This document shows, piece by piece, positions 3,225-38,586 of a stretch of DNA of 64,000 bases (the first letter of the stretch is position 1; each line of letters starts with the position of its first letter). The DNA comes from a virus (Duplodnaviria; Caudoviricetes). Both the position numbers and the translations under genes were made by a program. The DNA lies in IMG/VR virus record IMGVR_UViG_3300045015_000053. One strand, written 5' to 3'. The notes below the pieces were generated by a model. It made no database searches. It was not told the DNA's origin and saw nothing but the letters and a program-made list of their open reading frames with translations.

Positions 3225-3270
3225 CCTCTGAGTGATTTCTGAAACATCACAATCACTTAGAGGGGCGTGC
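3225..3270. promoter_or_regulatory. 13-bp hairpin upstream of a gene
   Basis: CCTCTGAGTGATT pairs with AATCACTTAGAGG (one G-T pair). Confidence 0.45.
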
Positions 3271-3288
3271 GCACGCACGTCAGCGGTC

Positions 3289-3675
3289 ATGGCACAATCA
3301 TTCACGATGCGGTTCGCGTTCTTTTTTCCAGAACGTAGCAAAGGTATTTTCTGGAGCGGCCCGTATCAGGTTTACGCGAAGACGGTCAACGAGGCGAAGG
3401 ACATCCTGACGGACGCGGTTCTGAAAGAGACGCGGCGCGAAGACGGCCCGCTCTACCAGATCAGCCTCCTCGAATGCGAGAACCGGCTGAACCCCGGCCG
3501 CAACGAAGAACACTACTGTTGCATCAACATCGGCATCGCCGAAGAGATCCACAAGCGTGCGGTGTTCCGCGAGCAGTTCGAGTGGAAGAAATACCTCGAA
3601 AAGAGGTTCCCGAAGGGCGTACCCAAGATCAGGAGCTTGGACGCCGAATGGGACTGGGGCGATGGAGATCTGTGA
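3289..3675 (+). CDS. hypothetical protein
   Basis: ATG at 3289 within track ORF 3232..3675. Confidence 0.6.
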   Translation: MAQSFTMRFAFFFPERSKGIFWSGPYQVYAKTVNEAKDILTDAVLKETRREDGPLYQISLLECENRLNPGRNEEHYCCINIGIAEEIHKRAVFREQFEWKKYLEKRFPKGVPKIRSLDAEWDWGDGDL

Positions 3676-7314: not shown

Positions 7315-7329
7315 CGCGAGGGCTGTGAC

Positions 7330-8573: not shown

Positions 8574-8577
8574 TTTT

Positions 8578-8610: not shown

Positions 8611-8622
8611 TCGTTTACAGGT

Positions 8623-9313: not shown

Positions 9314-9315
9314 AA

Positions 9316-23681: not shown

Positions 23682-24264
23682 GACGTGTTCCACGTTCATG
23701 CGGCTCCAAGAGTTCTATGAGTCGCCGTTCAAGCAGATTCGCGGCAAGCTGTTCTCGCTCGAACAGTTGATGGACCTGTACGCCAAGCAGCAGGGCAACT
23801 TCACTTACACCTGCGACTGGGGCGGCTTCAACGTGCCGGGCCACGTCGTTGACGAGTTCTTCCGTCTTTACGACGGGCAGTTGCTCGAAAAAGAGAAGGA
23901 CTTGAGGGAACTGGTTAAGGACAAGGCCGGCAAGATTGCGGTCGGCTCTAAGTATTACGTCATCGGGATGTACGGCGAAGAATGTCTGGATCACGAACTG
24001 GCCCATGCGTTATACTACCTCAATGACGACTACCGCCGTCAAGTTAACGGCCTAGTCAAAGCGTTGCCGGAATCGGTAAAGTCTGCCATCGCGAAGTGGC
24101 TCTTGGACAAAGGGTACTCGAAGCCGCTGATCGTGGACGAAACCAACGCCTACTTGACGACCGACGATCAGGAAGAGTTGACGAAGCGTTTCGGCAAAGC
24201 GGTCGGCAAGCGGTACGCGAAGTACGAGCCTTTCAGGAGAGCGTTCGATGACGCAAAGTTCTGA
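23611..24264 (+). CDS. HExxH-containing hypothetical protein
   Basis: LDHELAHALYY; strong coding bias. Confidence 0.7.
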   Translation: MKFKIKKSNPVPGVIHLLFKNQYETCSTFMRLQEFYESPFKQIRGKLFSLEQLMDLYAKQQGNFTYTCDWGGFNVPGHVVDEFFRLYDGQLLEKEKDLRELVKDKAGKIAVGSKYYVIGMYGEECLDHELAHALYYLNDDYRRQVNGLVKALPESVKSAIAKWLLDKGYSKPLIVDETNAYLTTDDQEELTKRFGKAVGKRYAKYEPFRRAFDDAKF

Positions 24265-25084
24265 GCCGTGGCGTGACGCAGTCACCTGTTTTGAGGACGG
24301 GGTGATTACCCAACACGAGTTCGTCAACACCATGTTCGATCTGTTGACGGTCGAGAACGTTTGGGAGATCGGCAAGCAGATCGACAAGAAGTATTTCGAC
24401 ATGCTCGCGGCGCGGCTCTCCGAACTGCCCGACGACGACGAGGGCTGGTCGAAGATGCGACGTTCCCACATGGGGAGCTTCACCGGCCCGGTCACCCAGA
24501 ACGAAGACTTCTCTGCAATGCGGCGTGGTGTCGAAGCTTTCCGCCGTTACTGTCTGATCCCGACAAAAGCACAAAAGAACTGGAAGTGCCTGTGCTATCT
24601 CTGCTTCCCCGAAGCGGTGGAGTACGGCGAACTTATCCCAGACATGTTTCTGTTCAAGGACGGCGACACCTACGGGTTGATGATGCAGTCCGGGCATCGC
24701 GGGGACTACATACTCTTGTTCCCAGAAAAGCCGACGCCGGACCCCGATCCTGAGTGTGTCCACGAATACGACGAGATCGCCACATCCGAGCGTTGGGTGG
24801 ATGTGGTGGCCGACTGGCAGGAGAAGTTGAAGCTGTTTCCGTCCGAGGGGCATCATCTGGTAGAGTCCTGCAAAGAGGCCGGGTGGAGCTACAAGCACGG
24901 CCACATGCTGTTCTGGCTGTTCGACCGCGCCGGGAAGATGCTGGAGGGTCAGGATGTTTCCGGTCAAACCGCAGGATCTGGATCTGCTTCCGAACCGGAG
25001 TGCAGAGTTGAGGGAGAAGATTCTGATCGGGCATGTGGTTCGCCCGATCAAGGTGGAGTGGTTGGACCTGAAGGAGCCGACTAA
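24248..25084 (+). CDS. hypothetical protein (3' end possibly frameshifted into 24954..25139)
   Basis: 278 aa; the last ~40 codons look less gene-like than the overlapping frame. Confidence 0.6.
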   Translation: MTQSSEPWRDAVTCFEDGVITQHEFVNTMFDLLTVENVWEIGKQIDKKYFDMLAARLSELPDDDEGWSKMRRSHMGSFTGPVTQNEDFSAMRRGVEAFRRYCLIPTKAQKNWKCLCYLCFPEAVEYGELIPDMFLFKDGDTYGLMMQSGHRGDYILLFPEKPTPDPDPECVHEYDEIATSERWVDVVADWQEKLKLFPSEGHHLVESCKEAGWSYKHGHMLFWLFDRAGKMLEGQDVSGQTAGSGSASEPECRVEGEDSDRACGSPDQGGVVGPEGAD

Positions 25085-25139
25085 GCCGAAGAAGGGTTTG
25101 CCTCCGATGCGGTCCTTAGACGACGAGTGGGAGTCATGA
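24954..25139 (+). CDS. small protein ending RSLDDEWES
   Basis: GGAGGG upstream of the ATG; shared C-terminal motif. Confidence 0.5.
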   Translation: MFPVKPQDLDLLPNRSAELREKILIGHVVRPIKVEWLDLKEPTKPKKGLPPMRSLDDEWES

Positions 25140-25444
25140 GCAAATTTCTCGAAGAAGCCAAAGAGCTTGAGAAGCGTTGGGGCCAGTCCAAACTCATGAG
25201 CGGTATTGAAGAATCTTGCCGCCGACAAATGATCAAGCAACTGCTTGAGAACCAAGCGGCGATGAATGCTGCGACTTCTGCTCCAGACGCTTCGGAGTTA
25301 AAGCGGATAAAAATTCCGCTCATTCGGCGTCTGCAAGGGCCACAAATGTCGCCTTCTGATCCTATACTGTCGGGACAGGGGACGACCAAGCCGAAACGCA
25401 GAAGGCCGGTCATCCGTGATCTCGATGACGAATGGGAAAGCTGA
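25136..25444 (+). CDS. protein resembling the T4-like major capsid N-terminal segment, ending RDLDDEWES
   Basis: KRWGQSKLMSGIEE...MIKQLLENQ...KIPLIRRL resembles the start of gp23-type MCPs; too short for a capsid protein. Confidence 0.45.
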   Translation: MSKFLEEAKELEKRWGQSKLMSGIEESCRRQMIKQLLENQAAMNAATSAPDASELKRIKIPLIRRLQGPQMSPSDPILSGQGTTKPKRRRPVIRDLDDEWES

Positions 25445-25452
25445 GGCATCAA

Positions 25453-25770
25453 ATGGGCGGTAGTTGCAACATGGTCGGTGGTGTTTCGGCCAAAGAACAC
25501 GCGACAAACGTGTTCTTGAACAAAGACACCGCGTTCGACAAGGCGCGGGACGCACACGAACAGGCCAGTCGCCTCGAAGACGCCGCTCGGAAAGAGTGGC
25601 ACGAGGCGAAAGAGGCGTTGGCGAAGGCTGTCGGGTACAAGGCCGGCGATCCGCCGGTTAGCATCGTCGTTGGCGACGGCCGTTTGATTCGGCTGTACAC
25701 TCGCCGAGAGGATCGGTGTGGGCGTGACCGCGAGCAAGAGGTTTCCGTCTCCATCGAGAAGGTCGTCTGA
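25453..25770 (+). CDS. hypothetical protein
   Basis: GAGG RBS. Confidence 0.55.
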   Translation: MGGSCNMVGGVSAKEHATNVFLNKDTAFDKARDAHEQASRLEDAARKEWHEAKEALAKAVGYKAGDPPVSIVVGDGRLIRLYTRREDRCGRDREQEVSVSIEKVV

Positions 25771-25979
25771 TGTCCGAGCCGATCAACGTCGATACGCCAG
25801 AGAAACTCCTCGAAATCTTCGGCAGTGCCTCGTTCATGCCGAAGACTTTGCTGGATACCGACCCGTTGGTGCGGTTCGACACCGAGCGTTCGATGGACCC
25901 TGCGATCCTCGCTCAGTTCCTACACAATTCGACCAAGCGGCCGAAGATGCGTGATCTGGACGACGATTGGTTTTCTTGA
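25770..25979 (+). CDS. small protein ending RDLDDDWFS
   Basis: TGATG overlap. Confidence 0.6.
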   Translation: MSEPINVDTPEKLLEIFGSASFMPKTLLDTDPLVRFDTERSMDPAILAQFLHNSTKRPKMRDLDDDWFS

Positions 25980-26017
25980 TTGAAAACATTCACATCTCGG
26001 ACTATATTACTTGACAT

Positions 26018-26086
26018 GCCCCGGCCGCTAGTGCGGTGCCGAGTTTCCTAAACTCAGCTTGAGAGGAGCGTAACCTCTCCGGGGTA
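26018..26086 (+). tRNA. non-canonical compact tRNA-like gene, Arg anticodon CCU
   Basis: GCCCCGG|CCGC-TAGT-GCGG|T|GCCGAGT-TTCCTAA-ACTCAGC|TTG|AGAGG-AGCGTAA-CCTCT|CCGGGGT|A; T-loop degenerate. Confidence 0.65.
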
Positions 26087-26119
26087 CTAAGGAAAGCATG
26101 AAAGAATACGAGGCAACCA

Positions 26120-26662
26120 ATGTGGCCATTCCAGTGCATAGGGCCAAACGGTCAGATCTATCTGCACAACGATAACTGGGAACAATTCATCAAGGAACGC
26201 GAAAAAGAGTATCCACACAACTGGAACCATCGCCGTTCTCTCATTACCCTTTTTGCCCCTCGCGACAACTTCCAAGACATCCCCGGCGTCACCGAGGCCA
26301 CGTTGCTCAACAACGTGGAGAACGACTATTCGGTGATCTTCCAGCCCTACCCCGCGCACCTGCGTACCGGCTACGACCCCGACGCCCGCGAAGAGTCGTG
26401 GAACATCTTCGTTGAAGACGGCCACTTCAACCCGCTCGGCGAGAAGGTTTCACTGTTCAGCACCGGCTTCTACTTCTTCCCCTCTGGCAGTTTGTTGGAC
26501 TTCACCAGTCGCCCGGAGCGGTTCGTGAAGTTCCGAAACAAATACTGGCGGGTACACGCAGTTCGAGGCGGCGGGTTGGGTGCCGCTGCGCCGCCGGCAC
26601 CGCCACCCAAGCCAAAGACCGACAAGATCTGTTTGCGTAATCTTGATGATGATTGGGAATGA
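26120..26662 (+). CDS. hypothetical protein ending RNLDDDWE
   Basis: 180 aa; Pro/Lys linker before the motif. Confidence 0.65.
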   Translation: MWPFQCIGPNGQIYLHNDNWEQFIKEREKEYPHNWNHRRSLITLFAPRDNFQDIPGVTEATLLNNVENDYSVIFQPYPAHLRTGYDPDAREESWNIFVEDGHFNPLGEKVSLFSTGFYFFPSGSLLDFTSRPERFVKFRNKYWRVHAVRGGGLGAAAPPAPPPKPKTDKICLRNLDDDWE

Positions 26663-26953
26663 CGTTTACAAGTGGGATCATCGCTCTGGGAGTTTGGATC
26701 TGTTTTGCGGCTCGTTGAACAAAACCAAGAAAAACTTGGAAAAATCCGACGAAGCCGCCGAAAGCTGTCTATATTAACTTCACGAGCCTCACGGCTCAAC
26801 GCCCGATCCGGCGTCTAACGCCGGCCGGTAATTTTGTGGCGAGCTTTTTCGCCATTGCACGGGACGCTTTTTAGTCCCTTGACCGAGAAGGAACATCATG
26901 TTCAACAAACACATCTTGCAAAACTCTTTTGCACCGCGTGACTATAATACGTC

Positions 26954-27661
26954 ATGCACACAACAAAAACACGTTTGAGACGTTGGTTGAAAGAAAGGTC
27001 GTCTTTTCTTGCTGCGATCAAGAGCAAGGGAGGCAAGTGTCAGAAATGTGGCGAAGACCACATTGCAGTTTTGGATTTTCATCATCGTGATGGTGACGAG
27101 AAAGAAGCACATGTTTCTTCGCTCGTTAGGAAGCCCAAACAAAAAGAAAAACTAGCTGCCGAATTGTTGAAATGCGATCTTTTGTGTTCAAATTGTCACC
27201 GCAAAGAGCATTTTGACAAATCAAAGTGGGATGCTCACGCCGAGGAAATTGAGCGTAGAGCAACTGGTTGGAAGCCAAAACGCGATCCGGTTTGCAAACG
27301 TGTATCCAAAGATGAGATTTCAAGTATTCGTCTTTGGATTGGCGAAGGATTGTCTTTTGAAAAGATGGCTAACCGTCTTGGTAGGAACCCAAGCGGGATG
27401 CGACGATCTGTCGTGAGACTTTACGAAAAAGGATTGCTCCCTGAATTTGCCTCTTATATTAGACCTAAAAGGGCAAAGAAGACGCGGGCCGATCAAAAAG
27501 AAGCAAAGCGTCTTTGGGAAGAGGGTCATACTGTTGCCGAGATAGCTTTGCTTCTCGGATGTGGCATTCGTGCAGTTTATTCTGCACTAAGGGGTATCAA
27601 AAATGGCGAACAAGAATCTCTTCAAGTCGAAGTCTCCTCTGGCGAACCTCAAGCCGTGTAA
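26954..27661 (+). CDS. HNH homing endonuclease with C-terminal HTH repeats
   Basis: KCQKCG...VLDFHHR...KCDLLCSNCHRKEH, then HTH-like segments; lower GC. Confidence 0.85.
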   Translation: MHTTKTRLRRWLKERSSFLAAIKSKGGKCQKCGEDHIAVLDFHHRDGDEKEAHVSSLVRKPKQKEKLAAELLKCDLLCSNCHRKEHFDKSKWDAHAEEIERRATGWKPKRDPVCKRVSKDEISSIRLWIGEGLSFEKMANRLGRNPSGMRRSVVRLYEKGLLPEFASYIRPKRAKKTRADQKEAKRLWEEGHTVAEIALLLGCGIRAVYSALRGIKNGEQESLQVEVSSGEPQAV

Positions 27662-29396
27662 TGCGGTGAATGAGGCTGGAGGAAAGGCGTATAAGCTGTC
27701 TGACCGTCAGGCTCTTAGCCAGTACGTCGCGACGGGCTGCTTCAACAGCACCTACTACGTCTCTGCGGAGACGCAACTACAGACCGTCCTCGAACTCGCC
27801 AACAAGGTCGAGCCGGGGTTCCTCGCGCGTGCGGCCCTGTACGGACACCAGAAGTCGTACATGAAGGACGTGCCGGCGTTGCTGGCGGCGGTACTCGCGT
27901 CCCGCGACGAGAAGACGCTGAAGAAGGTGTTCTCGAAGGTGATCGATTCGGGGAACATGCTGCGCAACTACGCACAGATGATCAAGAGCGGCGTGACCGG
28001 CCGCAAGTGCCTCGGTACGGCCAGCCGCAAGCTGGTCGGCAAGTGGTTCAGCGACCGCACCCCGGAGAACGTGTTCCACCAGAGCATCGGGAACGACCCG
28101 ACGTTGGGCGACGTGATCCGCATGGCGCACGCGAAGCCGGCGTCCCCGCAGCACGCGGCACTGTTCGCGTACCTGACCGGCGCAAAGGTCGAGACGGTCG
28201 AGGGGCGTAAGCTCCTGCGGACCCCGTACCTCGATGAGTCGAAGGTGCAGAAGTACCTCGAACACCCGTTCGACAACCTGCCGGAACTGGTGAAGCAGTT
28301 CGAGGCGTGGAAGGCTGACAACAGCCAGACGATGCCGAAGCTGAACTTCCGGTTCCTCGACGGCGCGGGCAAGCTCACTCTGGACCAGTGGAAGGAGATC
28401 GTTCGCAACGCGAACTGGCTGACCACGCTGAAGTCGCTTCAGTCGTGGGCGCGGCGCGGCGTCTTCGCCGACAAGGACATGACCAAGCTGGTTGCCGACC
28501 GGCTGCGTAACCCGGAACTGGTGAAGAAGGCCCGCGCCTTCCCGTACCAGATCATGATGGCGTACCTCGCGACGGACGCCCCGTCGCAGTACACCACCAA
28601 CTGGGGCCGCGCGTCCTCTTCGGAGGCAACGCCGGTGCCGCCGGAAGTCAAGAACGCACTTCAGGACGCGATGGAAGTCGCGACCCAGAACGTTCCGAAG
28701 ATGTCGGACGACGCGGTCTACGTCTGCCCGGACGTATCCGGCAGCATGTCGAGCGGTTCCGTCACGGGCAACCGTGGCACGGCAACCTCCCGCGTGCGGC
28801 CAATCGACGTGGCGGCACTGATGGCGGCGTGCGCCCTGCGTACCAACCCGAACGGCGAGGTGATCCCGTTCGAGGGGGCGGTGGTAGACGTGAACCGCAT
28901 CCGGCTCAACAGCCGGGACAGCGTCATGACGAACGCCGAGAAGCTGTCCAAGATCGGCGGCGGCAGCACGAACTGTGCCGCTCCCCTGCACCTTCTGAAC
29001 CAGCGGAAGGCGAAGGGCAAGGTCGTCATGTACATCTCCGACTACGAGTCGTGGGTGGACACCGGAACCGCCGCTCGCTACGGCAGCGGGGCTGCGGACA
29101 TGCTCGCGGAGTGGGAGATCTTCAAGAAGCGGAACCCGGACGCGAAGCTGATCTGCATGGACATGACCCCGCGTACCACCGCGCAGGTCACGACCCGGAA
29201 GGACATCCTTCAGGTCGGCGGGTTCAGCGACAACGTGTTCAACGTGGTGGACTCGTTCCTCCGTGCGAACGACAGCGAGGACTACTGGGTCAAGCTGATC
29301 GAAAGCATCGACCTCGACGCGCCGGTTGACACCCGGCCGGCGAAGGCCGAGGCGTCGGAAGAAGACGTTCCGTTAGCCGAAGCCGTGGAGGAATAA
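27603..29396 (+). CDS. TROVE-domain Ro60/Rsr-like RNA-binding protein with vWA domain
   Basis: NEAGGKAY...LSQYVATGCFNSTYY...YMKDVP...FPYQIMMAY...CPDVSGSM...ISDYESW. Confidence 0.92.
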   Translation: MANKNLFKSKSPLANLKPCNAVNEAGGKAYKLSDRQALSQYVATGCFNSTYYVSAETQLQTVLELANKVEPGFLARAALYGHQKSYMKDVPALLAAVLASRDEKTLKKVFSKVIDSGNMLRNYAQMIKSGVTGRKCLGTASRKLVGKWFSDRTPENVFHQSIGNDPTLGDVIRMAHAKPASPQHAALFAYLTGAKVETVEGRKLLRTPYLDESKVQKYLEHPFDNLPELVKQFEAWKADNSQTMPKLNFRFLDGAGKLTLDQWKEIVRNANWLTTLKSLQSWARRGVFADKDMTKLVADRLRNPELVKKARAFPYQIMMAYLATDAPSQYTTNWGRASSSEATPVPPEVKNALQDAMEVATQNVPKMSDDAVYVCPDVSGSMSSGSVTGNRGTATSRVRPIDVAALMAACALRTNPNGEVIPFEGAVVDVNRIRLNSRDSVMTNAEKLSKIGGGSTNCAAPLHLLNQRKAKGKVVMYISDYESWVDTGTAARYGSGAADMLAEWEIFKKRNPDAKLICMDMTPRTTAQVTTRKDILQVGGFSDNVFNVVDSFLRANDSEDYWVKLIESIDLDAPVDTRPAKAEASEEDVPLAEAVEE

Positions 29397-29413
29397 CCGT
29401 CTAAACAACGGAC

Positions 29414-29446
29414 AGACCGGCGGGATGGCCCGCCGGTCTTTTTGTT
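29414..29446 (+). terminator. intrinsic terminator
   Basis: GACCGGCGGG-ATGG-CCCGCCGGTC-TTTTT. Confidence 0.8.
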
Positions 29447-29667
29447 TACCGATGGCCCCAACCGTACCCTGAGATGCAGTGAGTGCCACGTTGGACGGTG
29501 TATAACCGCCCGCTGTGTTCGCCGACGACTTTGAATGTGCCATCCTCGAACGACCCGTCTTCTTCGTTCGGACCCTGGACCCGGATGCACCACTCGCCCG
29601 TTCCGTTTACTTGCAGACGTTCTCCTCCACTGACGTTTTCGATTACCGTGTCGTAGATGCAGGCCAT
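29446..29667 (-). CDS. hypothetical protein
   Basis: 73-aa ORF converging on the terminator. Confidence 0.4.
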   Translation of the reverse strand: MACIYDTVIENVSGGERLQVNGTGEWCIRVQGPNEEDGSFEDGTFKVVGEHSGRLYTVQRGTHCISGYGWGHR

Positions 29668-29775
29668 GATCTGTCTCCGTTAGTGGCGGGCGAAATGCCA
29701 GCCTACAAGATAAACGATTGGCCGTTACAAGAAAATGGCGGGTATAATCTCGACTATACTTAGTAGGGGGTCGTC

Positions 29776-30042
29776 ATGTGGGACGAAGACACCGCTGAGT
29801 CTGACAATGTTTACAACCAGCCGCTTTTCAATCCGTACTTGAAACAGCACGCTAAGGCTCGTATGGACTCTTACCGAAAAGAACTTGAGAGTTCCTATCG
29901 GGGTGCGGAGAACGGTTACTTCACGGAAGCGGAATTGAACAAACTGGCTTCTCAGATCGGTTCGGTGGCAACCGGACTTGACAACCAGCCCAAGAAAAAG
30001 AAACTGGTTATGCGCAATCTTGATGACGATTGGCAAGCCTAA
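29776..30042 (+). CDS. hypothetical protein ending RNLDDDWQA
   Basis: AGGGGG RBS. Confidence 0.6.
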   Translation: MWDEDTAESDNVYNQPLFNPYLKQHAKARMDSYRKELESSYRGAENGYFTEAELNKLASQIGSVATGLDNQPKKKKLVMRNLDDDWQA

Positions 30043-30054
30043 AGGGAGAATCAC

Positions 30055-30399
30055 ATGCCTGTCAAAACTCTGCCGCGAACGAAGCCGTCCGCTCCCGAAC
30101 ACGAGCCGGACGCAAAACGAAAACTCAAACACCAGCCGCCGTACAACGTGGTGCTGCTCAACGACGACGATCACTCGGTCGATTACGTCGTATTCATGAT
30201 GCAGAAGTTGTTCGGCAAGAAGCCCGAAGACGGCCTGCGTGTGGCCGAAGAGGTACACACGAAGGGTCGCGCCATTGTGCTGACGACGACCCTCGAACAC
30301 GCCGAGTTCAAACAGCAGCAGATCCATGAATTCGGCCCGGACCAGAAGGTGTCTCACTGCAAGGGAAGCATGAGTGCCGTGATCGAAGTAGCGGAGTGA
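30055..30399 (+). CDS. clpS: ATP-dependent Clp protease adaptor ClpS
   Basis: PPYNVVLLNDDDHSVDYVV...EVHTKGRAIV...EHAEFK. Confidence 0.9.
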   Translation: MPVKTLPRTKPSAPEHEPDAKRKLKHQPPYNVVLLNDDDHSVDYVVFMMQKLFGKKPEDGLRVAEEVHTKGRAIVLTTTLEHAEFKQQQIHEFGPDQKVSHCKGSMSAVIEVAE

Positions 30400-30400
30400 C

Positions 30401-31336
30401 ATGACCAACTTCTCGAACGTCCTATCGGTCTTTTACCGCATCAGCGACAGCCCGACCCCCGACAAGTGTTGCCCCAGAGAAGTCTGTTTCGTCAACTTCC
30501 TGAGCGTGTTCAGGGGGTTGCCGATCATGGTGGTGGCCGACAACGTCGGCCCTAAAACCTTGTCTCTCATCAAGCAGTCGGGCGTTCCCTTCATCGAAAC
30601 GTCTCTCGGCAACAGCGGCTCGTTCCTGAAGTGCCTCGAACTGGCAACTCAGGTCGATACGCTGTTCTCCTATTTCTCGGAAGACGATTACATCTACCGC
30701 GACCACGCCCCGCAGCTAATCGTGGAGGGTTTGCGGTGGAGCAACTACGTCACTTTGTACGACCACCCGGATAAGTACATCAAAGAACGCGGGTACGGGG
30801 AGGTCGGCCGGTGTTTGAAAACGGAAACGTGGCACTGGCGGCAGACGATCAGTACCTGTTGCACGTTCGGCGCGAACGTCAACTTGCTCCGTCAGGACAT
30901 GGACGTGTTCAAGAAGCACTGTCAGGGGAAGACGCCCGCCGACCACGCGATGTGGTGCGAGTTGTCTCAGCAGAAGCGGAGTCTGACGACCGCGATTCCG
31001 GGTGCGGCTTTCAACACGCACCGAGTTTGTGAACACAGTAACTTCGATTGGGGGAACACATGGGCGAGTGGCCAGATCAAAAAAGTTGTGGACGCGATGA
31101 ACCAGCAGGGGCGTTTCCAGCACCCGCCAGAATCAGTGACGTTCCAGCCTTTGGAACTGCAAAAAACTACATCGGGATTGCCGAACCTAGCGGCGTTGGG
31201 GAAAACGTCAACACCGCCGCAATTGCGGGGGCCGTCGCTGGCGATACCGGACCCGATGGCCCTCCACCAACAGAACATCAACAAGAAAAAGTACACGTTG
31301 CAAGAAGGGGAGCTTGGGGTTTTCACGCCGATCTGA
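30401..31336 (+). CDS. glycosyltransferase family 2-like protein
   Basis: IMVVADN...YFSEDDYIY...YVTLYDHPDKY. Confidence 0.65.
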   Translation: MTNFSNVLSVFYRISDSPTPDKCCPREVCFVNFLSVFRGLPIMVVADNVGPKTLSLIKQSGVPFIETSLGNSGSFLKCLELATQVDTLFSYFSEDDYIYRDHAPQLIVEGLRWSNYVTLYDHPDKYIKERGYGEVGRCLKTETWHWRQTISTCCTFGANVNLLRQDMDVFKKHCQGKTPADHAMWCELSQQKRSLTTAIPGAAFNTHRVCEHSNFDWGNTWASGQIKKVVDAMNQQGRFQHPPESVTFQPLELQKTTSGLPNLAALGKTSTPPQLRGPSLAIPDPMALHQQNINKKKYTLQEGELGVFTPI

Positions 31337-31546
31337 CGGGTTACCATCTCGAACAAATGCGAGCGGCCGTCGCCGAGATCGAAGACCCGATCAACGCGAT
31401 GTTTTTCAAGGCGCACCTTTCTGGGATGGAAAAGCTTGTTGAAGTAACTCGCCAGTGGTATGATGAACCCACGCCAGAGCTACACGACCGTATACAGACC
31501 CTGCGGCAGAACCTCACAGAAGGGCTGCAAGCACTGAGGAACTCAA

Positions 31547-31891
31547 ATGAGCCAGCAAGTGCGCACATTGCGAATTGACCAGAAGGAACGGGTCGAGACG
31601 GGTGCCGTCGAGTTCCAATACTCGGACGGCAACACCGACTGGCCCGGCATCTTCATTCGCGGCGACAACGCATTCGGACTCGCTCTTGGCATCCAGAGCG
31701 TCGTCGCCTTCTTCAAAGAGTACGAGAAGACCAAGCCCCTCCCCTTCGACCTGTTCATGGGTCTTCAACAGATCGCCGGCCTCGCCGACACCATCCACGG
31801 CGAGGTGATCGTCGGCGGCGCTTCCCCCGGCCTCGAACAAAAAATCAAAGACCAACAGATCGACCGAAAGATCGCCGAGGCAGGAGTTTGA
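31547..31891 (+). CDS. hypothetical protein
   Basis: GAGGA RBS; strong bias. Confidence 0.65.
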   Translation: MSQQVRTLRIDQKERVETGAVEFQYSDGNTDWPGIFIRGDNAFGLALGIQSVVAFFKEYEKTKPLPFDLFMGLQQIAGLADTIHGEVIVGGASPGLEQKIKDQQIDRKIAEAGV

Positions 31892-31993
31892 AAACAAGAT
31901 CAAGAAAAACATAGTCGAGACATTATGTCTTGATTACGCCTGCTGTATAATGAGTCGTTCTGGTTCAACCGATGACCACTCCGAGGGATCAAC

Positions 31994-32578
31994 ATGAAGA
32001 ATCTCACCTTTCTCAGATGGTGGGTAATCTACATCGCCTGCATGGTCGGGCTGGCGTTCGTGTGGAAAGCTGGTTTGGTCAGCAAGATTGCACAGAAAGA
32101 CGACACCTACGTTTCGTTCATCATCATGGCGGTTTTCATGGTGGTGTCCCCGCTGTGCGGTCTGAGTACGCGGGCGGTCTGTCGCGCACAGGACGGCGGC
32201 AACTGGGACGAGCAGTTCAAGAAAAAGGCCGAAGGCTGGAACGAGACTGGCTGGTTCTACAGCGAGTTGTGCCTGACGCTAGGCATGCTCGGTACGGTGA
32301 TCGGGTTCGTGTTGATGTTGGGCGGCTTCGAGCAGCTTGACATGAACAACGTCGCGAGCATGAACGCCTTCATCACTTCGTTCGGCCACGGCATGTCGAA
32401 GGCGTTGTACGCCACTTTGGTCGGCATCGTGTGCAGCATTCTTCTGAAGCTCCAATACTTCAACCTGACCAAAGCCATCGAGAAGAAGGCGAAGACCGAA
32501 GAACAGACCAGCTTCTCGTTGCGTATCTCGCCAGAGGCGATGAACAAGCTCGCCGGCAAAAAGGATGGTGCCAAGTGA
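31994..32578 (+). CDS. MotA/TolQ/ExbB proton-channel family protein
   Basis: LGMLGTVIGFVLML...GMSKALYATLVGIV. Confidence 0.85.
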   Translation: MKNLTFLRWWVIYIACMVGLAFVWKAGLVSKIAQKDDTYVSFIIMAVFMVVSPLCGLSTRAVCRAQDGGNWDEQFKKKAEGWNETGWFYSELCLTLGMLGTVIGFVLMLGGFEQLDMNNVASMNAFITSFGHGMSKALYATLVGIVCSILLKLQYFNLTKAIEKKAKTEEQTSFSLRISPEAMNKLAGKKDGAK

Positions 32579-33201
32579 GAAGCAAATACGCTACGCACTT
32601 CGCGTGGATCGACACGCTGATGAACATCCTGCTGGCCTTCATGGGGCTGTACGCGGTTGCGTTCATCATGACGGCGGTCAACAAGAAGCAGCAAGAGATG
32701 CAGGCGTCCGCGCCGATGAAGGGCGTGTTCCTGATCACCGCGACGTGGGAACCGGACCACGACGACGACGTTGACTTGTGGGTCGAAGACCCGGAAGGTC
32801 ATACGGTCGGCTACAACCGCCGCGAAGACGGTCTGATGCACCTCGACCGCGACGACCTCGGTTTTAGCAGCGACACTGTTGAGACACAGTTCGGGCCGGT
32901 CACCGTCAAGGACAACCGCGAACTCGTGACGATCCGTGGGATAACGCCCGGCGAGTTTACGGTCAACGTCCACATGTACCGCAAGACCGACCCCAAGCCG
33001 ACACACGTTCGTGTCACGCTCGAAAAACTCCAGCCGTACAGCATCGTCACGGCCAAAGAGGTGATCTTGACGGTCGCGGGGGACGAGGTTACTTCGTTCC
33101 GGTTCACGTTGAACTCGAAGGGTGAAGTGACCGAGATCAATCAACTGCAAAAGAAGTTCGCATCCAACGCCGCTCGCGGTCAGCCGCCGGGCCAACCTTA
33201 A
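32575..33201 (+). CDS. MotB/ExbD-like single-TM partner with periplasmic domain
   Basis: TM WIDTLMNILLAFMGLY with conserved Asp; DDVDLWVEDP domain. Confidence 0.6.
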   Translation: MRSKYATHFAWIDTLMNILLAFMGLYAVAFIMTAVNKKQQEMQASAPMKGVFLITATWEPDHDDDVDLWVEDPEGHTVGYNRREDGLMHLDRDDLGFSSDTVETQFGPVTVKDNRELVTIRGITPGEFTVNVHMYRKTDPKPTHVRVTLEKLQPYSIVTAKEVILTVAGDEVTSFRFTLNSKGEVTEINQLQKKFASNAARGQPPGQP

Positions 33202-33212
33202 CGGAGGTCGTC

Positions 33213-33869
33213 GTGGACAACAACGCTATCGGCATCCCTCTGGCGTTTTTCGCCATGATGGTCGTGCTGTGCTGGTGGGTCGTCGCCGCCAAAGGCTATT
33301 GGCTGATGAAGGTCTTGCTGGTCGCGTCCGCGCTGCTGGTGAGTCTGCTTCTGTGGAAGTCGGTCAGCAGTTTGGGCGGATGGGCGACCAACGAGAAACT
33401 CCCTGAGAAGTTCTTGGTTCACTGGGTCGTGATCCAAGAACCAGATCCGGGCGGCAAACACCCCGGTTACATCATGATCTGGGCCACCGAGCTTTCCGAC
33501 GACACGACCGTCAAGAAAGACGAGAGCAGGTTCAAGATCACCGCCGATCACCCCGGCGAACCTCGCGTCTACAAACTGCCCTACAGCCGGCCACTACACG
33601 ACCAGATGAACAAGGTTCAGGGTCGTCTCAAACAGGGCAAGCCGGTCGTCGGGAAACGCAGAGGCGTGGAAGACGGAGAAGATGGTGACGGCGACGGGGA
33701 TGAAGATGGGGACGGTGACGGGGATGGCAAGGGCGGTAAGGGCAAGGGTAAAGGAAAAGGCAAGGGCAAGGGCGGTACTGGTTCGGGCGGCGGGTTCTCG
33801 AAGCCCACCGAGTTCATGTTCTATGATCAGCCGCCGCCGAAGATGCCTGAGAAGATTCCGGGCAAGTGA
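33213..33869 (+). CDS. membrane protein with G/D and G/K low-complexity tail
   Basis: two TM helices; GDGDGDEDGDG and GKGKGKGKG tracts. Confidence 0.7.
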   Translation: MDNNAIGIPLAFFAMMVVLCWWVVAAKGYWLMKVLLVASALLVSLLLWKSVSSLGGWATNEKLPEKFLVHWVVIQEPDPGGKHPGYIMIWATELSDDTTVKKDESRFKITADHPGEPRVYKLPYSRPLHDQMNKVQGRLKQGKPVVGKRRGVEDGEDGDGDGDEDGDGDGDGKGGKGKGKGKGKGKGGTGSGGGFSKPTEFMFYDQPPPKMPEKIPGK

Positions 33870-33873
33870 AACA

Positions 33874-33902
33874 AAAACGCCGACCACATGGTCGGCGTTT
33901 TT
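33874..33902. terminator. intrinsic terminator
   Basis: AAAAACGCCGACC-ACAT-GGTCGGCGTTTTT. Confidence 0.8.
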
Positions 33903-33918
33903 GTTGCCTATATACGGT

Positions 33919-34644
33919 ATGAACTTTAGAGTATGGCTTGAGTCGCAATTGCCGTCGCCTTTGGACTCCTTCAGGAGCAAGGACGAGTTTATTGCGTTTT
34001 TGAAGAAGTCTTCGGCGGCGGATCGTCAGGGCATTCTGGATTGGGCCGAGAAGATCAATGCCGCCAACTACGCGAAGAAGGTGGGGACCAACAATCCCGC
34101 AGTCCTCTACCACGGCTCGCCTCAAGATAAGATCGCCAAAGACGGGTTCCAGATCACGATGGGCCAAAGAAGTTCCGGGTTCATGGGCGCGACGTACTCG
34201 GTCCAGAACCAGGGCATCTTCATGACGGACTCGAAGGAGATGGCGAACTACTTCGGGAGCAATCGGAGCGACGGCGGCAGGAACTTCCGCGTCTACACGG
34301 CCTATGCCAACCTAGATCACCTGTTTGATGTGACGCTCGGCATGCCGCTTCAGTACCGCAAACTCGGCCTCAAGCTCATCAACGACTACTACGGCAAGAA
34401 GAAGACGAAGTTGGCCGAGTCGGACATCTGGTGGTTATTGGACCGGCCGGATTTTGTGAACCTGATCAAGCAGGGCGGTTACAACGCCGTCAAGTTCAAA
34501 GAAGACTACTCGATCAGGAAACAGAGCAGCAAGGCGGCGTTCAGCTATCTTGTTTTCGACACAGCACATCTGGTGGTCAAGAGTCCCCAAAACGATTTGC
34601 TCAACAGCGTGGACTCCATTTGGGAGTACATCTCCGGTCATTAG
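33919..34644 (+). CDS. ADP-ribosyltransferase-like putative virion protein
   Basis: VLYHGS...GIFMTDSKEMANYFG...VYTAY (ART-like fold pattern); MNFRVWLES N-terminus; CTATATA upstream. Confidence 0.55.
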   Translation: MNFRVWLESQLPSPLDSFRSKDEFIAFLKKSSAADRQGILDWAEKINAANYAKKVGTNNPAVLYHGSPQDKIAKDGFQITMGQRSSGFMGATYSVQNQGIFMTDSKEMANYFGSNRSDGGRNFRVYTAYANLDHLFDVTLGMPLQYRKLGLKLINDYYGKKKTKLAESDIWWLLDRPDFVNLIKQGGYNAVKFKEDYSIRKQSSKAAFSYLVFDTAHLVVKSPQNDLLNSVDSIWEYISGH

Positions 34645-35096
34645 TTGGGGATCTTGCTCGCGCAAACCGACTTCTCAGTAGCCTTCCCTGCGAGGTGAGG
34701 GTCAACGGCTCTGGGCTTTTTGACCAGACAGTCTTTGGTCGGCTTGCCCGGAAGTGGTGAATCTTGTGGCTTCCGTACATCGCCCGGCGGCATCTTGTAG
34801 TGCGGCATTTTTGCCGGGCTTCCTTTTGCATGAGGCACGACCCATCCGGGCATGCCGTGTCCCTTCGGCTCTTGTACGTCACCGGACAGGTGATCGATGT
34901 TGAACGGCTTGCCTTCCCAGTACGCCGAGTATCTGTCGTCAATGCTGAGGTAGTACAAGGTGTCGGCCGCTGACGGCATCAGGTAAGCGGGAGGGTAGTT
35001 GCCGATGCCGTCGTATCCGAGCGGGTACAGGCCGGTTTTGGTTCCCGCGCGGCTGTTCTCGTTAACCAAGTCCAGAAATTGGTCAAAGTTCATCAT
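34641..35096 (-). CDS. hypothetical protein, putative late gene
   Basis: MMNFDQFLDLVNE; CTAAATA upstream on the minus strand. Confidence 0.65.
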   Translation of the reverse strand: MMNFDQFLDLVNENSRAGTKTGLYPLGYDGIGNYPPAYLMPSAADTLYYLSIDDRYSAYWEGKPFNIDHLSGDVQEPKGHGMPGWVVPHAKGSPAKMPHYKMPPGDVRKPQDSPLPGKPTKDCLVKKPRAVDPHLAGKATEKSVCASKIPN

Positions 35097-35179
35097 CGCT
35101 CTTATTTAGCCAGTTGACTGCGAAGAAAACGTGGATCGAAACGGGACTTCATGTTACAATAAGTCTCAAGGAGGCACCG

Positions 35180-35671
35180 ATGAAATACTACACCCCCGAA
35201 ATGGTCAACCGCTGGAACGGCGACAAGCTCGGTCTGAGACAGGCCGAGTTCGACGCCGAATGGGACAAGGCTCAGACCGAGTACGAGGAGCATTTCGCCA
35301 AGCTCAAGGATCTTCCGCTTTCCGTACAAAAACTGCACGACGGCGCGGTCCTTTATGGCGAGCGGCTGATCTCCCTTCCGAAGCCCGAAGGGTATCAACG
35401 CGGCGAAGACTTCGTGATCGTAACTGGCGACGAACGCGATGGTGTAAACCACATTTTGGTCTATACTGTCGAAAAGCCGCCGGTCGTGAGGGTTCACGAG
35501 GGGGTCGGGTTCGACCCCGCAACCACGCCCGGCGTCTGGCTTTACGACGAGTTCGGTGTCGATGCGGACGGTGCGTTCACGCACAATACGATCTTCACCA
35601 ACGGCATCGAAGTGGAAGTGACGTTCAAGTCGATGCACTGGATCGAGGCGGTCACACAGGAATCCGGGTGA
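35180..35671 (+). CDS. hypothetical protein
   Basis: AAGGAGG RBS. Confidence 0.7.
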   Translation: MKYYTPEMVNRWNGDKLGLRQAEFDAEWDKAQTEYEEHFAKLKDLPLSVQKLHDGAVLYGERLISLPKPEGYQRGEDFVIVTGDERDGVNHILVYTVEKPPVVRVHEGVGFDPATTPGVWLYDEFGVDADGAFTHNTIFTNGIEVEVTFKSMHWIEAVTQESG

Positions 35672-36036
35672 TGGAAACGAAACAGGTAATTCTGATTCGC
35701 CGCGACCTGAAAATGCGTCGGGGCAAAGAAATCGCGCAGGGGGGCCACGCTGCGTCGTCCTTCCTCGCCGAGATCGTCAGAACGGGCCGAGAGGTCACGC
35801 TCGCGGAACGGGCGTGGCTCGACGGGCTTTACAAGAAAGTCTGCTTGGTGGTCGAATCCGAAGCGGAACTCCGCGAACTACATGAGAAGGCACAGGCGGC
35901 GGGCCTGACCTCCCACATGATTTTGGATTCGGGTCTGACGGAGTTCGGCGGCGTGCCTACACCGACATCGTGCGCCATCGGGCCAGCCGAGGAAAGTGCG
36001 GTGAACGCGATCACCGGCCACCTGAAGCTTTACTGA
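35671..36036 (+). CDS. pth2: peptidyl-tRNA hydrolase type 2
   Basis: KQVILIRRDLKMRRGKEIAQGGHA...KKVCL...ILDSGLTEFGG...CAIGP. Confidence 0.92.
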   Translation: METKQVILIRRDLKMRRGKEIAQGGHAASSFLAEIVRTGREVTLAERAWLDGLYKKVCLVVESEAELRELHEKAQAAGLTSHMILDSGLTEFGGVPTPTSCAIGPAEESAVNAITGHLKLY

Positions 36037-36280
36037 CGTGGGGTGAAGATGCGTTCAGACGTTTTGGCAAAAAGTTGGGCATTGACGGTGTCCAACTTGT
36101 CTGTGGCCGCAACGGTTTTGTTGAGCATGGTGTTGACGGCGTCTGCTTGGGGTCTGATCGGGTTGATCGTGATCCCCGTAAATCTGCTGGTTTGGCAGTA
36201 CACGAGACGCGGCCTCATGCTCGTCGGGTGCGAGGACCACGAGATCGAAGTGTTGTTCCAAACCATAGGAGAGGAATCAG

Positions 36281-36907
36281 GTGGAGACGGCCTTGATTGT
36301 GGCGACCGTCGTTCTCGCCATAGGGCTTGTGGCGGCGTTCGCCCTCCAGAGACAACAAAACAAATCGCTGACCCTGAAGTTAGCGAAAATGCAAGCCGCA
36401 TTGACGACCCAAGATACGCTAACTGCTTCAAAGCTTGACGCGATCACCGTGGAGGTCGAGGAACGGCTGATCGACCACAAGAAATACTGTGCGGGCGTTG
36501 AAGAGGCGTTGAAGTCTCTGTTGACGCAAGAAGAATCGAAATGGCGCGAACTTATCGAGCGGCTGAAGGCTCAGTTCGGTACTGCCATCGAAGAAGCCCG
36601 AAAGGAAACGGGCGAGAAACAGGCCGAAATCATGGCCGACATCCAGAAGGAACTGACGAAGCAGGTGGATAACTTCCGCAGCCTGATGAATCAGGCGTAT
36701 CTCGAACAGTACGAGAAGATGCGGCGTAATCCGCCGAGGCCGGTGAAACGGCCGCGAAGCAAAGTTGCCCCACCGGAGCGGTACAGAAGTCTTGACGACG
36801 ACTTCAACTGCATGCCGACGCCCGAACCCGAACCCGAACCCGCTGCTACTGAAGAGGCTGCCGAGCCGGTGAAGAAGAAGCGGACGACGCGGAAGAGGGC
36901 CAGATGA
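36281..36907 (+). CDS. membrane-anchored coiled-coil protein with internal RSLDDDF motif
   Basis: N-terminal TM; heptad repeats. Confidence 0.7.
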   Translation: METALIVATVVLAIGLVAAFALQRQQNKSLTLKLAKMQAALTTQDTLTASKLDAITVEVEERLIDHKKYCAGVEEALKSLLTQEESKWRELIERLKAQFGTAIEEARKETGEKQAEIMADIQKELTKQVDNFRSLMNQAYLEQYEKMRRNPPRPVKRPRSKVAPPERYRSLDDDFNCMPTPEPEPEPAATEEAAEPVKKKRTTRKRAR

Positions 36908-36984
36908 GTGGGTTTCATGGTGTGGGGCCGTGAAACCTTTTTTGTTGAGGGAAAGGGACCAGAGCTATGCTCTAGGGGGAAATT

Positions 36985-37680
36985 ATGGGTGCTTTAGCTC
37001 AGAAGAAGGTGTTGGTACTGAACAAGCACAGCGTTGCTGTCGGCGTGGTGTCGCTGCAACGCGCCATCATCATGTTGTTCTCATTCGACCCGAAAACCCT
37101 CAAGCCGAAGGCCGAGATCATTGACGAGGGGTGCCAGCCGTGGACCTGGGAGGAGTGGGCGTTGTTGCGCCCGGAGGACAACGAGGACGCAATAAACTCC
37201 TGTCAGGGTCGGTTCAAGATTCCTGAGATCATCAAGCTGTCGAAGTACGACAAGATGCCACAGCATCAGATCCACTTCAGCCGCCGGATGATCCACAAGC
37301 GTGACGGTAGCCAGTGCATGTACTGTCGCGCCCGGCCGGGAACCGAGGAACTGACCATCGACCACATCATTCCACGCTCGAAGGGTGGCTTGACGACGTG
37401 GGAGAACTGTGTCCTCGCCTGCGTGCCGTGCAACAGCAACAAGGCCAACCGGATGCCCGACCGCACGACCGTCGTTGACCACGTCAAGGACGATCACGGC
37501 AAGCTGAAGGAAGTACACGTTCCGGCCTTCACCGTGTACTTCAACGACAAGACCCGGAAGACCATCCGGCAGCCGAAGAAGCCCAACTTCGAGGTCTTCC
37601 GTGGGGAGATCCCATACAAGTCTTGGGCGCAGTGGCTCAACGTGGCCTACTGGAACGTCGAGCTAGAAAACGACAACTAA
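36985..37680 (+). CDS. HNH endonuclease (McrA/HNH_5-like)
   Basis: KVLVLN...RDGSQCMYC...TIDHIIPRSKGG...WENCVLACVPCNSNK. Confidence 0.88.
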   Translation: MGALAQKKVLVLNKHSVAVGVVSLQRAIIMLFSFDPKTLKPKAEIIDEGCQPWTWEEWALLRPEDNEDAINSCQGRFKIPEIIKLSKYDKMPQHQIHFSRRMIHKRDGSQCMYCRARPGTEELTIDHIIPRSKGGLTTWENCVLACVPCNSNKANRMPDRTTVVDHVKDDHGKLKEVHVPAFTVYFNDKTRKTIRQPKKPNFEVFRGEIPYKSWAQWLNVAYWNVELENDN

Positions 37681-37695: not shown

Positions 37696-38586
37696 TTAGT
37701 CGTGGTGCTTTTGATTGGCCGCACTCAGGTATCCGTCGTCTCTCTCGGCCCGGCTTCTGAAGCGGTGCTTGGTCAAGAACTTGCCGAACTTGGCGAGCCG
37801 TCCACGCGGGTTCGGGACGTGAGCCTGTCCGAGACTCGGCAGTAGGTGTTCGAGTTCCTTGAAGTCGTGCCATTTTTTACCGTCGAACCCGGCGATCCAA
37901 ACGCTCGTGTCATCTCGAATGACGCCCTTCGCGGCGAGCTTGGCGAGATCCTCAAACTTCACGTCCACCTTACGCCCGAATGCGTTGATGTAAGCCGCGT
38001 TTTTGCCGGCGAATTCCTCGGCACCCAAAGTCGGTGTTGTAGCCGCGACGTACTGGTGCATGTCATCTTGCACGTCTTTGTGTTTGTACGGCAGCCAATC
38101 GTCGTATCCGTACCGCTTTACCATCGTGTCGGGTTTGATCCACCTTTTGGCGACCGCGTCAGCGAACTCTTTAGACCCGACGAATTTGTAGGCGTGTCCG
38201 TCGAGGTAGGCCCACCACACCGTCTTGTCGTTCGCCACGCCCTTGCTGACCCGGCTGAAAGGGAGGTACTTCTTGGCGTCTTTGATCTGGTTCCAGTTTT
38301 GCTCACCTTGTACCCAAATCATGTCTTCGGGATGAACTTGGTTGATCCGGTACAACTGAACGATTTTGATGCCGTCCATTTGCACCGGGTTGACGCCGTC
38401 TTCTCGCGGCTTGTCGGGCCGGTACAACCAGAACATGCCGCGCTGGTCTTTTCGCTTGCCGCGTTCGCCGAGGCCACCCTTGATCGCGCCGTAAGCAGCA
38501 CCGCCCAACGCGGCGGCGGCGAGTGCCGTACCGACGATTTCGTCCAGTTGCCGCTTCTCTTTCCCCCATTTCACGAATGATTCCAT
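37696..38586 (-). CDS. protein with repeated GYF_2/DUF4339-like domains
   Basis: repeats INQVHPEDMIWVQGEQNW, IKPDTMVKRYGYDDW, IRDDTSVWIAGFDGKKW. Confidence 0.65.
   Translation of the reverse strand: MESFVKWGKEKRQLDEIVGTALAAAALGGAAYGAIKGGLGERGKRKDQRGMFWLYRPDKPREDGVNPVQMDGIKIVQLYRINQVHPEDMIWVQGEQNWNQIKDAKKYLPFSRVSKGVANDKTVWWAYLDGHAYKFVGSKEFADAVAKRWIKPDTMVKRYGYDDWLPYKHKDVQDDMHQYVAATTPTLGAEEFAGKNAAYINAFGRKVDVKFEDLAKLAAKGVIRDDTSVWIAGFDGKKWHDFKELEHLLPSLGQAHVPNPRGRLAKFGKFLTKHRFRSRAERDDGYLSAANQKHHD

Follow-up and report, generated by a model that had tools for sequence, protein, structure and literature searches.

A short peptide shared by the ends of unrelated proteins in a huge-phage lineage is a candidate docking tail

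Unrelated proteins encoded in a 64,000-nt stretch of DNA from a tailed virus (Caudoviricetes; IMG/VR record IMGVR_UViG_3300045015_000053; the window, to which positions refer unless stated otherwise) carry the same short peptide, with the core R-[SDN]-[LIV]-D-[DE], mostly at or near their C termini. The window belongs to a linear virus record of 188,369 bp (G000), which CheckV rates as 37% complete, and the same phage is also found on a 475,914-bp contig (proteins P0014 and P0134). We found that this tail is under purifying selection at the protein level, that it is carried by about 36 proteins of a complete related genome, among them pieces of that phage's own capsid and other proteins, and that it also ends a probable gp32-like single-stranded DNA-binding protein (SSB). 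The reading that we favour, with moderate confidence, is that the tail is a portable docking peptide, a short linear motif, for one common and co-evolving partner.

The strict pattern R.LDD[DE][WF] had exactly six matches in a six-frame scan of the whole of G000, all on the plus strand and confined to 12 kb of the window (25110 to 36805; Table 1). An earlier note, made from the letters of the window, had reported these six instances on unrelated proteins, and there are no others. The motif lies 1–2 residues before the stop codon in five of the six copies and 33 residues before it in the other (m6). From residue frequencies, 0.008 strict matches would be expected per proteome and 0.06 per six-frame translation; when each protein was shuffled (n = 2,000), the mean was 0.01 and the maximum was a single match. 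An unbiased count of enriched words in the last 14 residues of all open reading frames (ORFs) also recovered the motif, both in G000 and in a complete IMG/VR genome of the same clade (G002; 532,729 bp, CheckV 100%). The same count gave nothing comparable in LR756511, a 595-kb relative that has 83 proteins in common with G000, or in Myxococcus phage Mx1.

Comparison of related loci extended the conserved unit and relaxed it relative to the first description: a Lys/Arg cluster and then a hydrophobic or aromatic residue precede R-[SDN]-[LIV]-D-x-x-W-[EDQ], and 0 to about 15 residues follow. The arginine and the [LIV]-D pair are invariant, serine is replaced by asparagine or aspartate in half of the window copies, and the aromatic residue is found 1–16 residues before the end or is absent. 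A scan of G000 with the looser core returned eight carriers (m1–m8), adding m7 at window 3232..3675 (KIRSLDAEWDWGDGDL) and m8 outside the window, at G000 77808..78296 (FRSLDALWDYDEPLKPLFE). The occurrence of the motif in G000 is therefore confirmed and is larger than first described. None of m1–m8, including the orphan m7, matched a family in searches of Pfam, PHROGs and NCBIfam, and small orphan proteins are found among the carriers. With their tails removed, no carrier of G000 was significantly similar to another (best E 0.1–0.3).

The peptide behaves as a unit of protein rather than of DNA. Codons differ among the six window copies; in G002, serine is encoded by both AGY and TCN and arginine by both CGN and AGR, and the flanks are 25–32% identical (21 tryptophan-containing copies first listed). 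Differing codons and unrelated flanks rule out a DNA repeat or mobile element, and codon use together with flank identity excludes a recently duplicated DNA segment. The tails follow flexible linkers that are basic or rich in proline. In m4, whose AlphaFold2 model shows a confidently predicted orphan domain followed by a disordered tail (predicted local distance difference test score (pLDDT) 80; no match to the fold in PDB or AFDB clusters), the Gly/Pro-rich linker varies among orthologues (n = 13, 48–78% identity) although the terminal R[SN][LIV]D[DE][DE][WF] is kept in 12 of the 12 that are full length. The tail is also kept across lineages in m6, in m8 and in the SSB; m6 orthologues in the related loci L013, L188 and L189 retain [YF]R[SN]LDDDF. 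The peptide is thus under purifying selection at the protein level. Nascent-peptide stalling at termination was rejected, as the distance from motif to stop ranges from 1 to more than 30 codons.

Outside G000, the motif was found in the 586-kb NCBI contig behind L013, in L014 (51 kb), L015/L016, L184 (673 kb), L188 (90 kb) and L189, and in G002, in which the approximately 36 carriers are scattered throughout the genome. Phages of this clade are huge, of about half a megabase, and come from freshwater and lakes. About one-third of the G002 carriers stop exactly one residue after R-S-I-D-D and about half continue with P-W-E and a further 2–6 residues; a few hold the peptide internally or near the N terminus. 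The form of the tail shifts between lineages. The position after R-x is leucine in all eight G000 carriers, whereas it is isoleucine in 37 of 39 G002 matches; D-D is followed by aspartate or glutamate in G000 and by proline in G002 (the Y-R-S-I-D-D-P-W form); and the residue before the arginine is one of several hydrophobics in G000 and tyrosine or tryptophan in G002. Concerted variation of this kind within a lineage, without homogenization of the DNA, points best to a single receptor that itself differs from lineage to lineage. The earlier note had described the peptide as protein-level convergence. Selection on the protein stands, but convergence is not the best word for a module that recurs across a genome and shifts in step within each lineage.

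LR756511 and Mx1, the cultured phage with the closest homologue of the Ro60 protein discussed below, contain no carriers. Searches of IMG/VR with a codon-restricted pattern gave 12 matches that were essentially noise, with one plausible single copy in L003 and no further copy in that record. The same pattern gave at least 120 matches in 185,579 species genomes, again essentially noise except for an unrelated family in Coriobacteriia (by eye, heterodisulfide reductase-like) that ends in ARLLDDDWEE. A general bacterial or viral motif is ruled out by these noise-level scans and, as far as the genomes searched can tell, the tail is an invention of one huge-phage lineage.

Several carriers of G002 are made of pieces of the phage's own proteins. 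Four mini-proteins match non-overlapping parts of the Pfam Gp23 family of T4-type major capsid proteins (MCPs; positions 3–62, 146–196, 206–258 and 301–331; 54.8–31.9 bits), and a fifth covers the C-terminal end of the MCP. These MCP pieces are 49–88% identical to the intact MCP of the same genome (338843..340279). Another carrier is 39% identical to the prohead-protease-like gene adjoining that MCP, with a weak match to the Pfam prohead protease family (17 bits, below cut-off), and others match PrkA_C (40 bits) and, weakly, gp32 (E 0.013). The window holds the same kind of gene. Residues 5–74 of m2 are 51% identical to the N terminus of the intact G002 MCP (E 4e-17); m2 also matches the LR756511 genome (38%, in an unannotated region) and an L014 carrier (13859..14215), and L014 has the same kind of MCP-piece gene directly before ClpS. 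In L013, a 78-amino-acid carrier (9607..9843) aligns to residues 19–69 of the G000 SpoVR (E 1e-11), a protein that was itself confirmed with a score of 347.7 bits. The window protein m3 has a weak 19-residue N-terminal match to this carrier (E 0.017) and no SpoVR match of its own, and so appears to be its diverged counterpart.

Other copies and sources of such pieces were noted. A paralogue of the C-terminal third of the MCP (G002 524328–524810; L300:6928–7410) has YRSIDDD near its N terminus and lacks the tryptophan. Another MCP N-terminal piece, on the minus strand at about 475.6 kb of G002, is joined to a zinc ribbon and has QAGW as its last residues. In G000, outside the window, an operon (5316–10890) encodes a 709-amino-acid PrkA-like protein, which we take to be PrkA, a 408-amino-acid protein and SpoVR; LR756511 has the same operon at 54–71% identity.

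The tail also ends proteins that resemble gp32: YRSIDEEWQV in L014 (16480..17103) and WRSIDEPWSSQ in L184/G002 (36315..36992). The L014 protein (207 amino acids) aligned to nearly the whole Pfam gp32 profile with E 2e-4 and 21.8 bits (cut-off 26.8). The L184/G002 homologue matched PHROG 1192, 'single strand DNA binding protein' (E 1.8e-4), and, in a tblastn search, an annotated single-stranded DNA-binding protein of Bacillus phage Nachito. The family conserves an H...C...CxxC pattern, which to us resembles the gp32 zinc site. Each of these lines of evidence is weak on its own; together they make the tail-bearing protein a probable gp32-like SSB. Escherichia coli SSB, T7 gp2.5 and T4 gp32 all carry partner-docking peptides at the extreme C terminus. 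The SSB homologue of L185 ends in a variant (YRSISAPFNPAW; YRSISAPF) with serine in place of the key aspartate, which suggests an older, different version of the tail. The homologue in LR756511 has an unrelated long tail.

A second gp32-like gene of G002 is split. Its zinc-binding N-terminal part (L274:13789–14031) ends in the tail (RWRNIDEPWEASS), and the oligonucleotide/oligosaccharide-binding (OB) part, 4 kb away (L274:18099–18464), has the peptide near its N terminus (KKYRSIDDPWED). In L014, a few genes from a tail carrier, a 96-amino-acid protein (18109–18399) ends in ...PEEPDDDIPF, the exact tip of bacterial SSB; the same phage group may have borrowed a second, host-type docking tail.

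We favour docking because the carriers combine a working or bait part, a linker and a selected terminal peptide, because the peptide tips an SSB, and because it changes in step within each lineage. The docking unit would comprise the Lys/Arg cluster, the hydrophobic or aromatic residue and R-[SDN]-[LIV]-D-[DE], usually followed by x-W-[EDQ]. A disordered linker would join it to the ends of many different proteins, all of which would bind one partner, such that the variable part of each carrier would serve as bait or working domain and the tail as tether. The earlier note had proposed a tag that docks diverse proteins onto one hub, for which it named a sliding clamp among other candidates. The portable behaviour of the tag and its selection on otherwise unrelated proteins are borne out, but a T4-type clamp as the hub is not. 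The note had foreseen neither the SSB-tip carrier nor those carriers that derive from the capsid protein and other proteins of the phage itself.

Several observations weigh against docking on a single partner. No partner was found for the tail, and docking is thus a prediction. The one-third of G002 carriers that end one residue past R-S-I-D-D do so as a C-terminal degradation signal would. A free C terminus is not obligatory, as the peptide is N-terminal or internal in G002 18099.., 140650.. and 524328.. and in m6 of the window. The gp32 assignment rests on matches below the Pfam cut-off, the AlphaFold2 model of the gp32-like protein was unusable (pLDDT 43), and a profile search with this protein against PDB sequences found no match; G000 represents 37% of a genome, and its own SSB lies outside the record. 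Candidate partners also occur apart from the tail. Mx1 has a Ro60 (41% identity) without the motif, L186 has a Ro60 with no carrier within 10 kb, and in the Ro60-positive L185 the sole copy is the D-to-S variant that ends the SSB. In Sinorhizobium phage Phosso, which encodes a ClpX and a distant ClpS (43% over 54 residues), no tryptophan-containing C-terminal form of the tail was found by a scan that required tryptophan and was blind to tails without it.

For the self-derived pieces, docking suggests a more specific and tentative proposal, which could be called bait-and-tether and which we regard as possible, although we would not rely on it. Mini-genes derived from the phage's own most conserved proteins (MCP, prohead protease, SSB, PrkA and SpoVR) would be joined to the universal tail. 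Each piece would bind whatever normally recognizes that segment, be it an immune sensor of the host, EF-Tu, a chaperone or the parent protein at full length, and would bring the bound protein to one partner of the tail, under phage control, for sequestration or destruction. Among the captives might be misfolded full-length protein, EF-Tu or host proteins that sense the core phage proteome. Capsid proteins are known to trigger bacterial immunity: the immune sensor CapRel is activated by capsid protein (PMC9712102), and capsid-triggered sensing has been described for Avs7 and for Dsr1 with EF-Tu (bioRxiv 10.64898/2026.01.04.697583). The T4 MCP binds EF-Tu according to earlier work as cited in that preprint. 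By analogy with these systems, a decoy or capture role of the self-derived pieces is plausible.

That several carriers are head-protein pieces, including the N-terminal propeptide region of the MCP and the prohead protease, could instead point to a localization or packaging signal that directs its carriers into the prohead or towards a compartment for replication or assembly. T4 internal proteins share a short capsid-targeting sequence, and the membrane-anchored m6 could keep a site of this kind at the membrane. However, the T4 signal is N-terminal and cleaved, and we saw no pattern of a cleavage site here. The SSB, the PrkA and SpoVR pieces and the membrane protein have no reason to be in the head, and the window carriers lie among tRNA and auxiliary genes, outside the structural module. 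We therefore consider a localization signal quite improbable.

The invariant arginine, and a serine that is often next to it, raise the question of a modification site, in which the arginine would be ADP-ribosylated by a phage ART- or PARP-like enzyme or the serine phosphorylated by PrkA. The window encodes ART-PolyVal and PARP-like proteins, the genome encodes PrkA, and R-S-I-D-D fits both basophilic and acidophilic kinase patterns. Nevertheless, as serine is replaced by asparagine or aspartate in half of the window copies, phosphorylation cannot be essential. A homologue (70.7% identity) of the PrkA-like protein and the PARP-like protein are both kept in the motif-free LR756511, and modification would leave the preference for the extreme C terminus unexplained. 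This explanation is very unlikely.

A sliding clamp as partner would make the tail this lineage's form of the T4/RB69 clamp-binding peptide (S-L-D-F-L-F type), and S-L-D-x-x-aromatic after a basic stretch does recall the C-terminal clamp peptides of those phages. Yet the complete G002 genome gave no match to either of the two clamp models tried, gp45-slide_C (PF09116) and DNA_pol3_beta (PF00712). No polymerase, ligase or sigma-type factor was present among its approximately 36 carriers; the largest motif-bearing ORF, a 409-amino-acid RNA-ligase-like protein, was not counted, its internal match being attributed to chance. The polymerase ORFs of G000 are, by eye, of the DnaE type (PHP start) and end without the motif. 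We give this the least credence of the explanations considered.

Co-occurrence bears on the choice of partner. The eight carriers of G000 and the approximately 36 of G002 are accompanied by Ro60, ClpS, ClpX and a phage-encoded EF-Tu, whereas LR756511 has ClpX but lacks the other three and Mx1 has Ro60 but lacks the other three. The candidates present in motif-positive genomes and missing from LR756511 are thus Ro60, ClpS and the phage EF-Tu; other clade-specific genes examined encode an RNA ligase, a glycosyltransferase, a NUDIX protein and proteins of unknown function. The partner is no less likely to be a protein of the host. The EF-Tu gene of G000 (70664–71842, outside the window) is 73% identical to that of G002, in which it lies 2 kb from ClpS. 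Its product is 60–65% identical to cellular EF-Tu of many phyla, with the Planctomycetes–Verrucomicrobia–Chlamydiae (PVC) group (Phycisphaerales, Verrucomicrobiota) on top, a ranking that is not decisive for the host.

A protein with GYF_2 repeats (37696..38586, minus strand) was rejected as the common partner, as it has no homologue in G002 despite the many carriers there. This 296-amino-acid protein contains three GYF_2-like repeats (Pfam 45 bits) and, towards its N terminus, a hydrophobic segment; the N terminus itself is invariant (MESFxKWGxEKxxLDE). The protein occurs in G000 and close relatives only; LR756511 and Mx1 also lack it.

The Clp genes bear on the main rival to docking, namely that the tail is a degradation tag for a Clp protease, either the phage ClpX or host ClpA/ClpC acting with the phage ClpS. 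Carriers would turn over rapidly or would pull their bound targets along into the protease, as UmuD delivers UmuD'. The phage encodes a zinc-finger ClpX, ClpS and a ClpP-family protein, and ClpS is present in all of the motif-positive genomes that were fully examined (G000, G002, L013, L014 and L188). In three lineages, small carrier genes immediately precede ClpS (m5 in G000, and genes in L013 and L014); in L188, the carrier gene is located one gene further upstream. A strong preference for the extreme C terminus, with many G002 carriers stopping one residue after D-D, would also fit. Known C-terminal tags for ClpX and ClpA, however, are non-polar (ssrA, ending in L-A-A) or basic (MuA type), whereas the tail is acidic, and ClpS recognizes N-terminal rather than C-terminal residues. 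The ClpX orthologue persists in the motif-free LR756511 (54% identity, with the same zinc-finger insertion; 57% in G002), an SSB, which is required in large amounts, would be a surprising constitutive substrate for a protease, and internal and N-terminal copies of the peptide exist. Degradation is in our view unlikely, although it deserves to be taken seriously, and so does the stability tag linked to ClpX or ClpS that the earlier note had suggested. Mimicry of the transfer-messenger RNA (tmRNA) tag was rejected, as G000 has no tmRNA gene and the tail is unlike ssrA tags.

Ro60 suggests a different type of partner. Its von Willebrand factor A (vWA) domain has an intact D-x-S-x-S metal site (the metal ion-dependent adhesion site, MIDAS), in which D377, S379 and S381 are invariant in 39 homologues. 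The tail could be a ligand of this site that gathers carriers on a particle of Ro60 and Y RNA, the invariant aspartate after an aliphatic residue completing the metal coordination as in integrin ligands, which carry L-D-V-P or I-D-S-P(-L) motifs. The [LIV]-D heart of the tail and the G002 form I-D-D-P-W resemble these ligands, Ro60 is present in all motif-positive genomes and absent from the motif-free LR756511, and carrier genes flank it in G000, L013, L014, L184 and L188. Against this stand the Ro60 of Mx1, the closest in a cultured phage, and those of L186 and L185, which occur as described above without the motif, without a nearby carrier or with serine for the key aspartate; moreover, the carriers of G002 are spread over 533 kb and do not cluster at Ro60. 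A role of the tail as Ro60 ligand is improbable, and docking to a common partner remains the reading that we favour.

Table 1 Tail carriers and candidate partner genes in the window.
Feature	Position	Strand	Motif position	Description
m7, 147 amino acids	3232..3675	+	3631–3651 (relaxed-core scan)	Orphan; ends ...FPKGVPKIRSLDAEWDWGDGDL
m1, 61 amino acids	24954..25139	+	25110 (strict, start)	Ends TKPKKGLPPMRSLDDEWES; overlaps 3' end of ORF 24248..25084
m2, 105 amino acids	25127..25444	+	25415 (strict, start)	N-terminal ~70 residues of T4-type MCP plus tail (TKPKRRRPVIRDLDDEWES)
m3, 69 amino acids	25770..25979	+	25950 (strict, start)	Ends STKRPKMRDLDDDWFS; proposed counterpart of SpoVR N-terminal piece
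m4, 180 amino acids	26120..26662	+	26636 (strict, start)	Folded orphan domain (1–150), Gly/Pro-rich linker, tail PKPKTDKICLRNLDDDWE
Ro60/TROVE, vWA domain with intact D-x-S-x-S metal site	27603..29396	+		Pfam; candidate partner
m5, 88 amino acids	29776..30042	+	30013 (strict, start)	Ends QPKKKKLVMRNLDDDWQA; 13 nt upstream of ClpS
ClpS adaptor homologue	30055..30399	+		Pfam ClpS, E 2e-19; candidate partner
ART-PolyVal ADP-ribosyltransferase-like	33961..34644	+		Possible degenerate carrier; ends NSVDSIWEYISGH; weak, no Arg/basic cluster, uncounted
m6, 208 amino acids	36281..36907	+	36785 (strict, start)	Internal motif ...APPERYRSLDDDFNCMP; by eye, N-terminal membrane helix and long coiled coil
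ClpX homologue, N-terminal zinc finger	52594..53871	+		Pfam AAA_2, ClpB_D2-small, zf-C4_ClpX

The first carrier of the main cluster, m1, overlaps a gene in another frame. Coding potential changes frame near 24930–24960, to that of m1, and the m1 orthologue in L013 (9414..9614) ends in IRSIDDEWEPSGV. In L013, the homologues of ORF 24248..25084 and of m1 are separate, overlapping ORFs with their own start codons, and from this arrangement a frameshift fusion of the two was judged less likely than two overlapping genes. ORF 24248..25084 extends about 50 codons beyond the frame switch, its L013 homologue ends much earlier, and its annotated end is probably spurious. Elsewhere in the window, a 380-nt gap between Ro60 and m5 (29397–29775) contains no convincing ORF. 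Window 31994–34644 encodes a MotA/ExbB-like channel protein, then two membrane-type proteins (by eye) and the ART-PolyVal protein, and window 59013–60593 encodes the PARP-like protein, which has a WGR domain. In the 673-kb relative L184, a homologue of ribosomal protein bL12 (9357–9785) lies directly upstream of Ro60.

In a half-megabase phage, about 5% of the genes bear this one peptide, among them those for a probable SSB and for tagged pieces of the capsid protein, protease and SSB of the same phage. Should the tail be a tether, identification of its partner would reveal a hub central to the biology of huge phages, and dozens of orphan genes would gain a first function at once. If the self-derived pieces are baits, they would represent a new viral way to aim one effector at many targets, possibly capsid sensors. 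At 8–12 residues and portable, the peptide might also serve as a tool tag once its partner is known. A literature search found neither the peptide strings nor any description of tail-tagged capsid fragments. Shared docking tails as such are an already known kind of device; the novelty lies in the peptide itself, in the scale of its use, in the way it co-varies by lineage and, most of all, in its being joined to fragments of core genes of the same phage.

The closest parallels are the tip of bacterial SSB (D-D-D-I-P-F) and the tails of T7, where the acidic C termini of the gp2.5 SSB and the gp4 helicase-primase dock on the gp5 polymerase. In each case, a short acidic-aromatic C-terminal peptide follows a flexible linker on an SSB and on other proteins. 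The tail described here differs in its invariant arginine, its aliphatic-Asp core and the basic cluster that precedes it, and it does not fit the SSB consensus (D-D-D-[IL]-P-F with a terminal phenylalanine), as its aromatic residue is not last and is dispensable in G002. Its scale is also far larger, with eight carriers in 188 kb and about 36 in a complete genome, and most of these are not DNA-handling proteins. SspB adaptors likewise consist of a domain, a flexible linker and a C-terminal peptide (L-R-V-V-K), which binds the zinc-finger domain of E. coli ClpX, and the phage ClpX has a zinc-finger domain; but the SspB peptide is basic and aliphatic whereas the present one is acidic and aromatic, and the ClpX orthologue persists where the motif is absent. 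The clamp peptides of T4/RB69 gp43, gp33 and gp55 are similarly shared by the C termini of unrelated proteins and are loosely alike in S-L-D-x-x-aromatic, whereas in G002 neither clamp model was matched and no carrier is a polymerase or transcription factor. Finally, the capsid-targeting sequence of T4 internal proteins IPI–III and Alt is one short peptide that acts as an address label on unrelated small phage proteins. It is N-terminal and removed by the prohead protease, whereas the tail of this huge-phage lineage is C-terminal, acidic and carried also by proteins that are not of the head.

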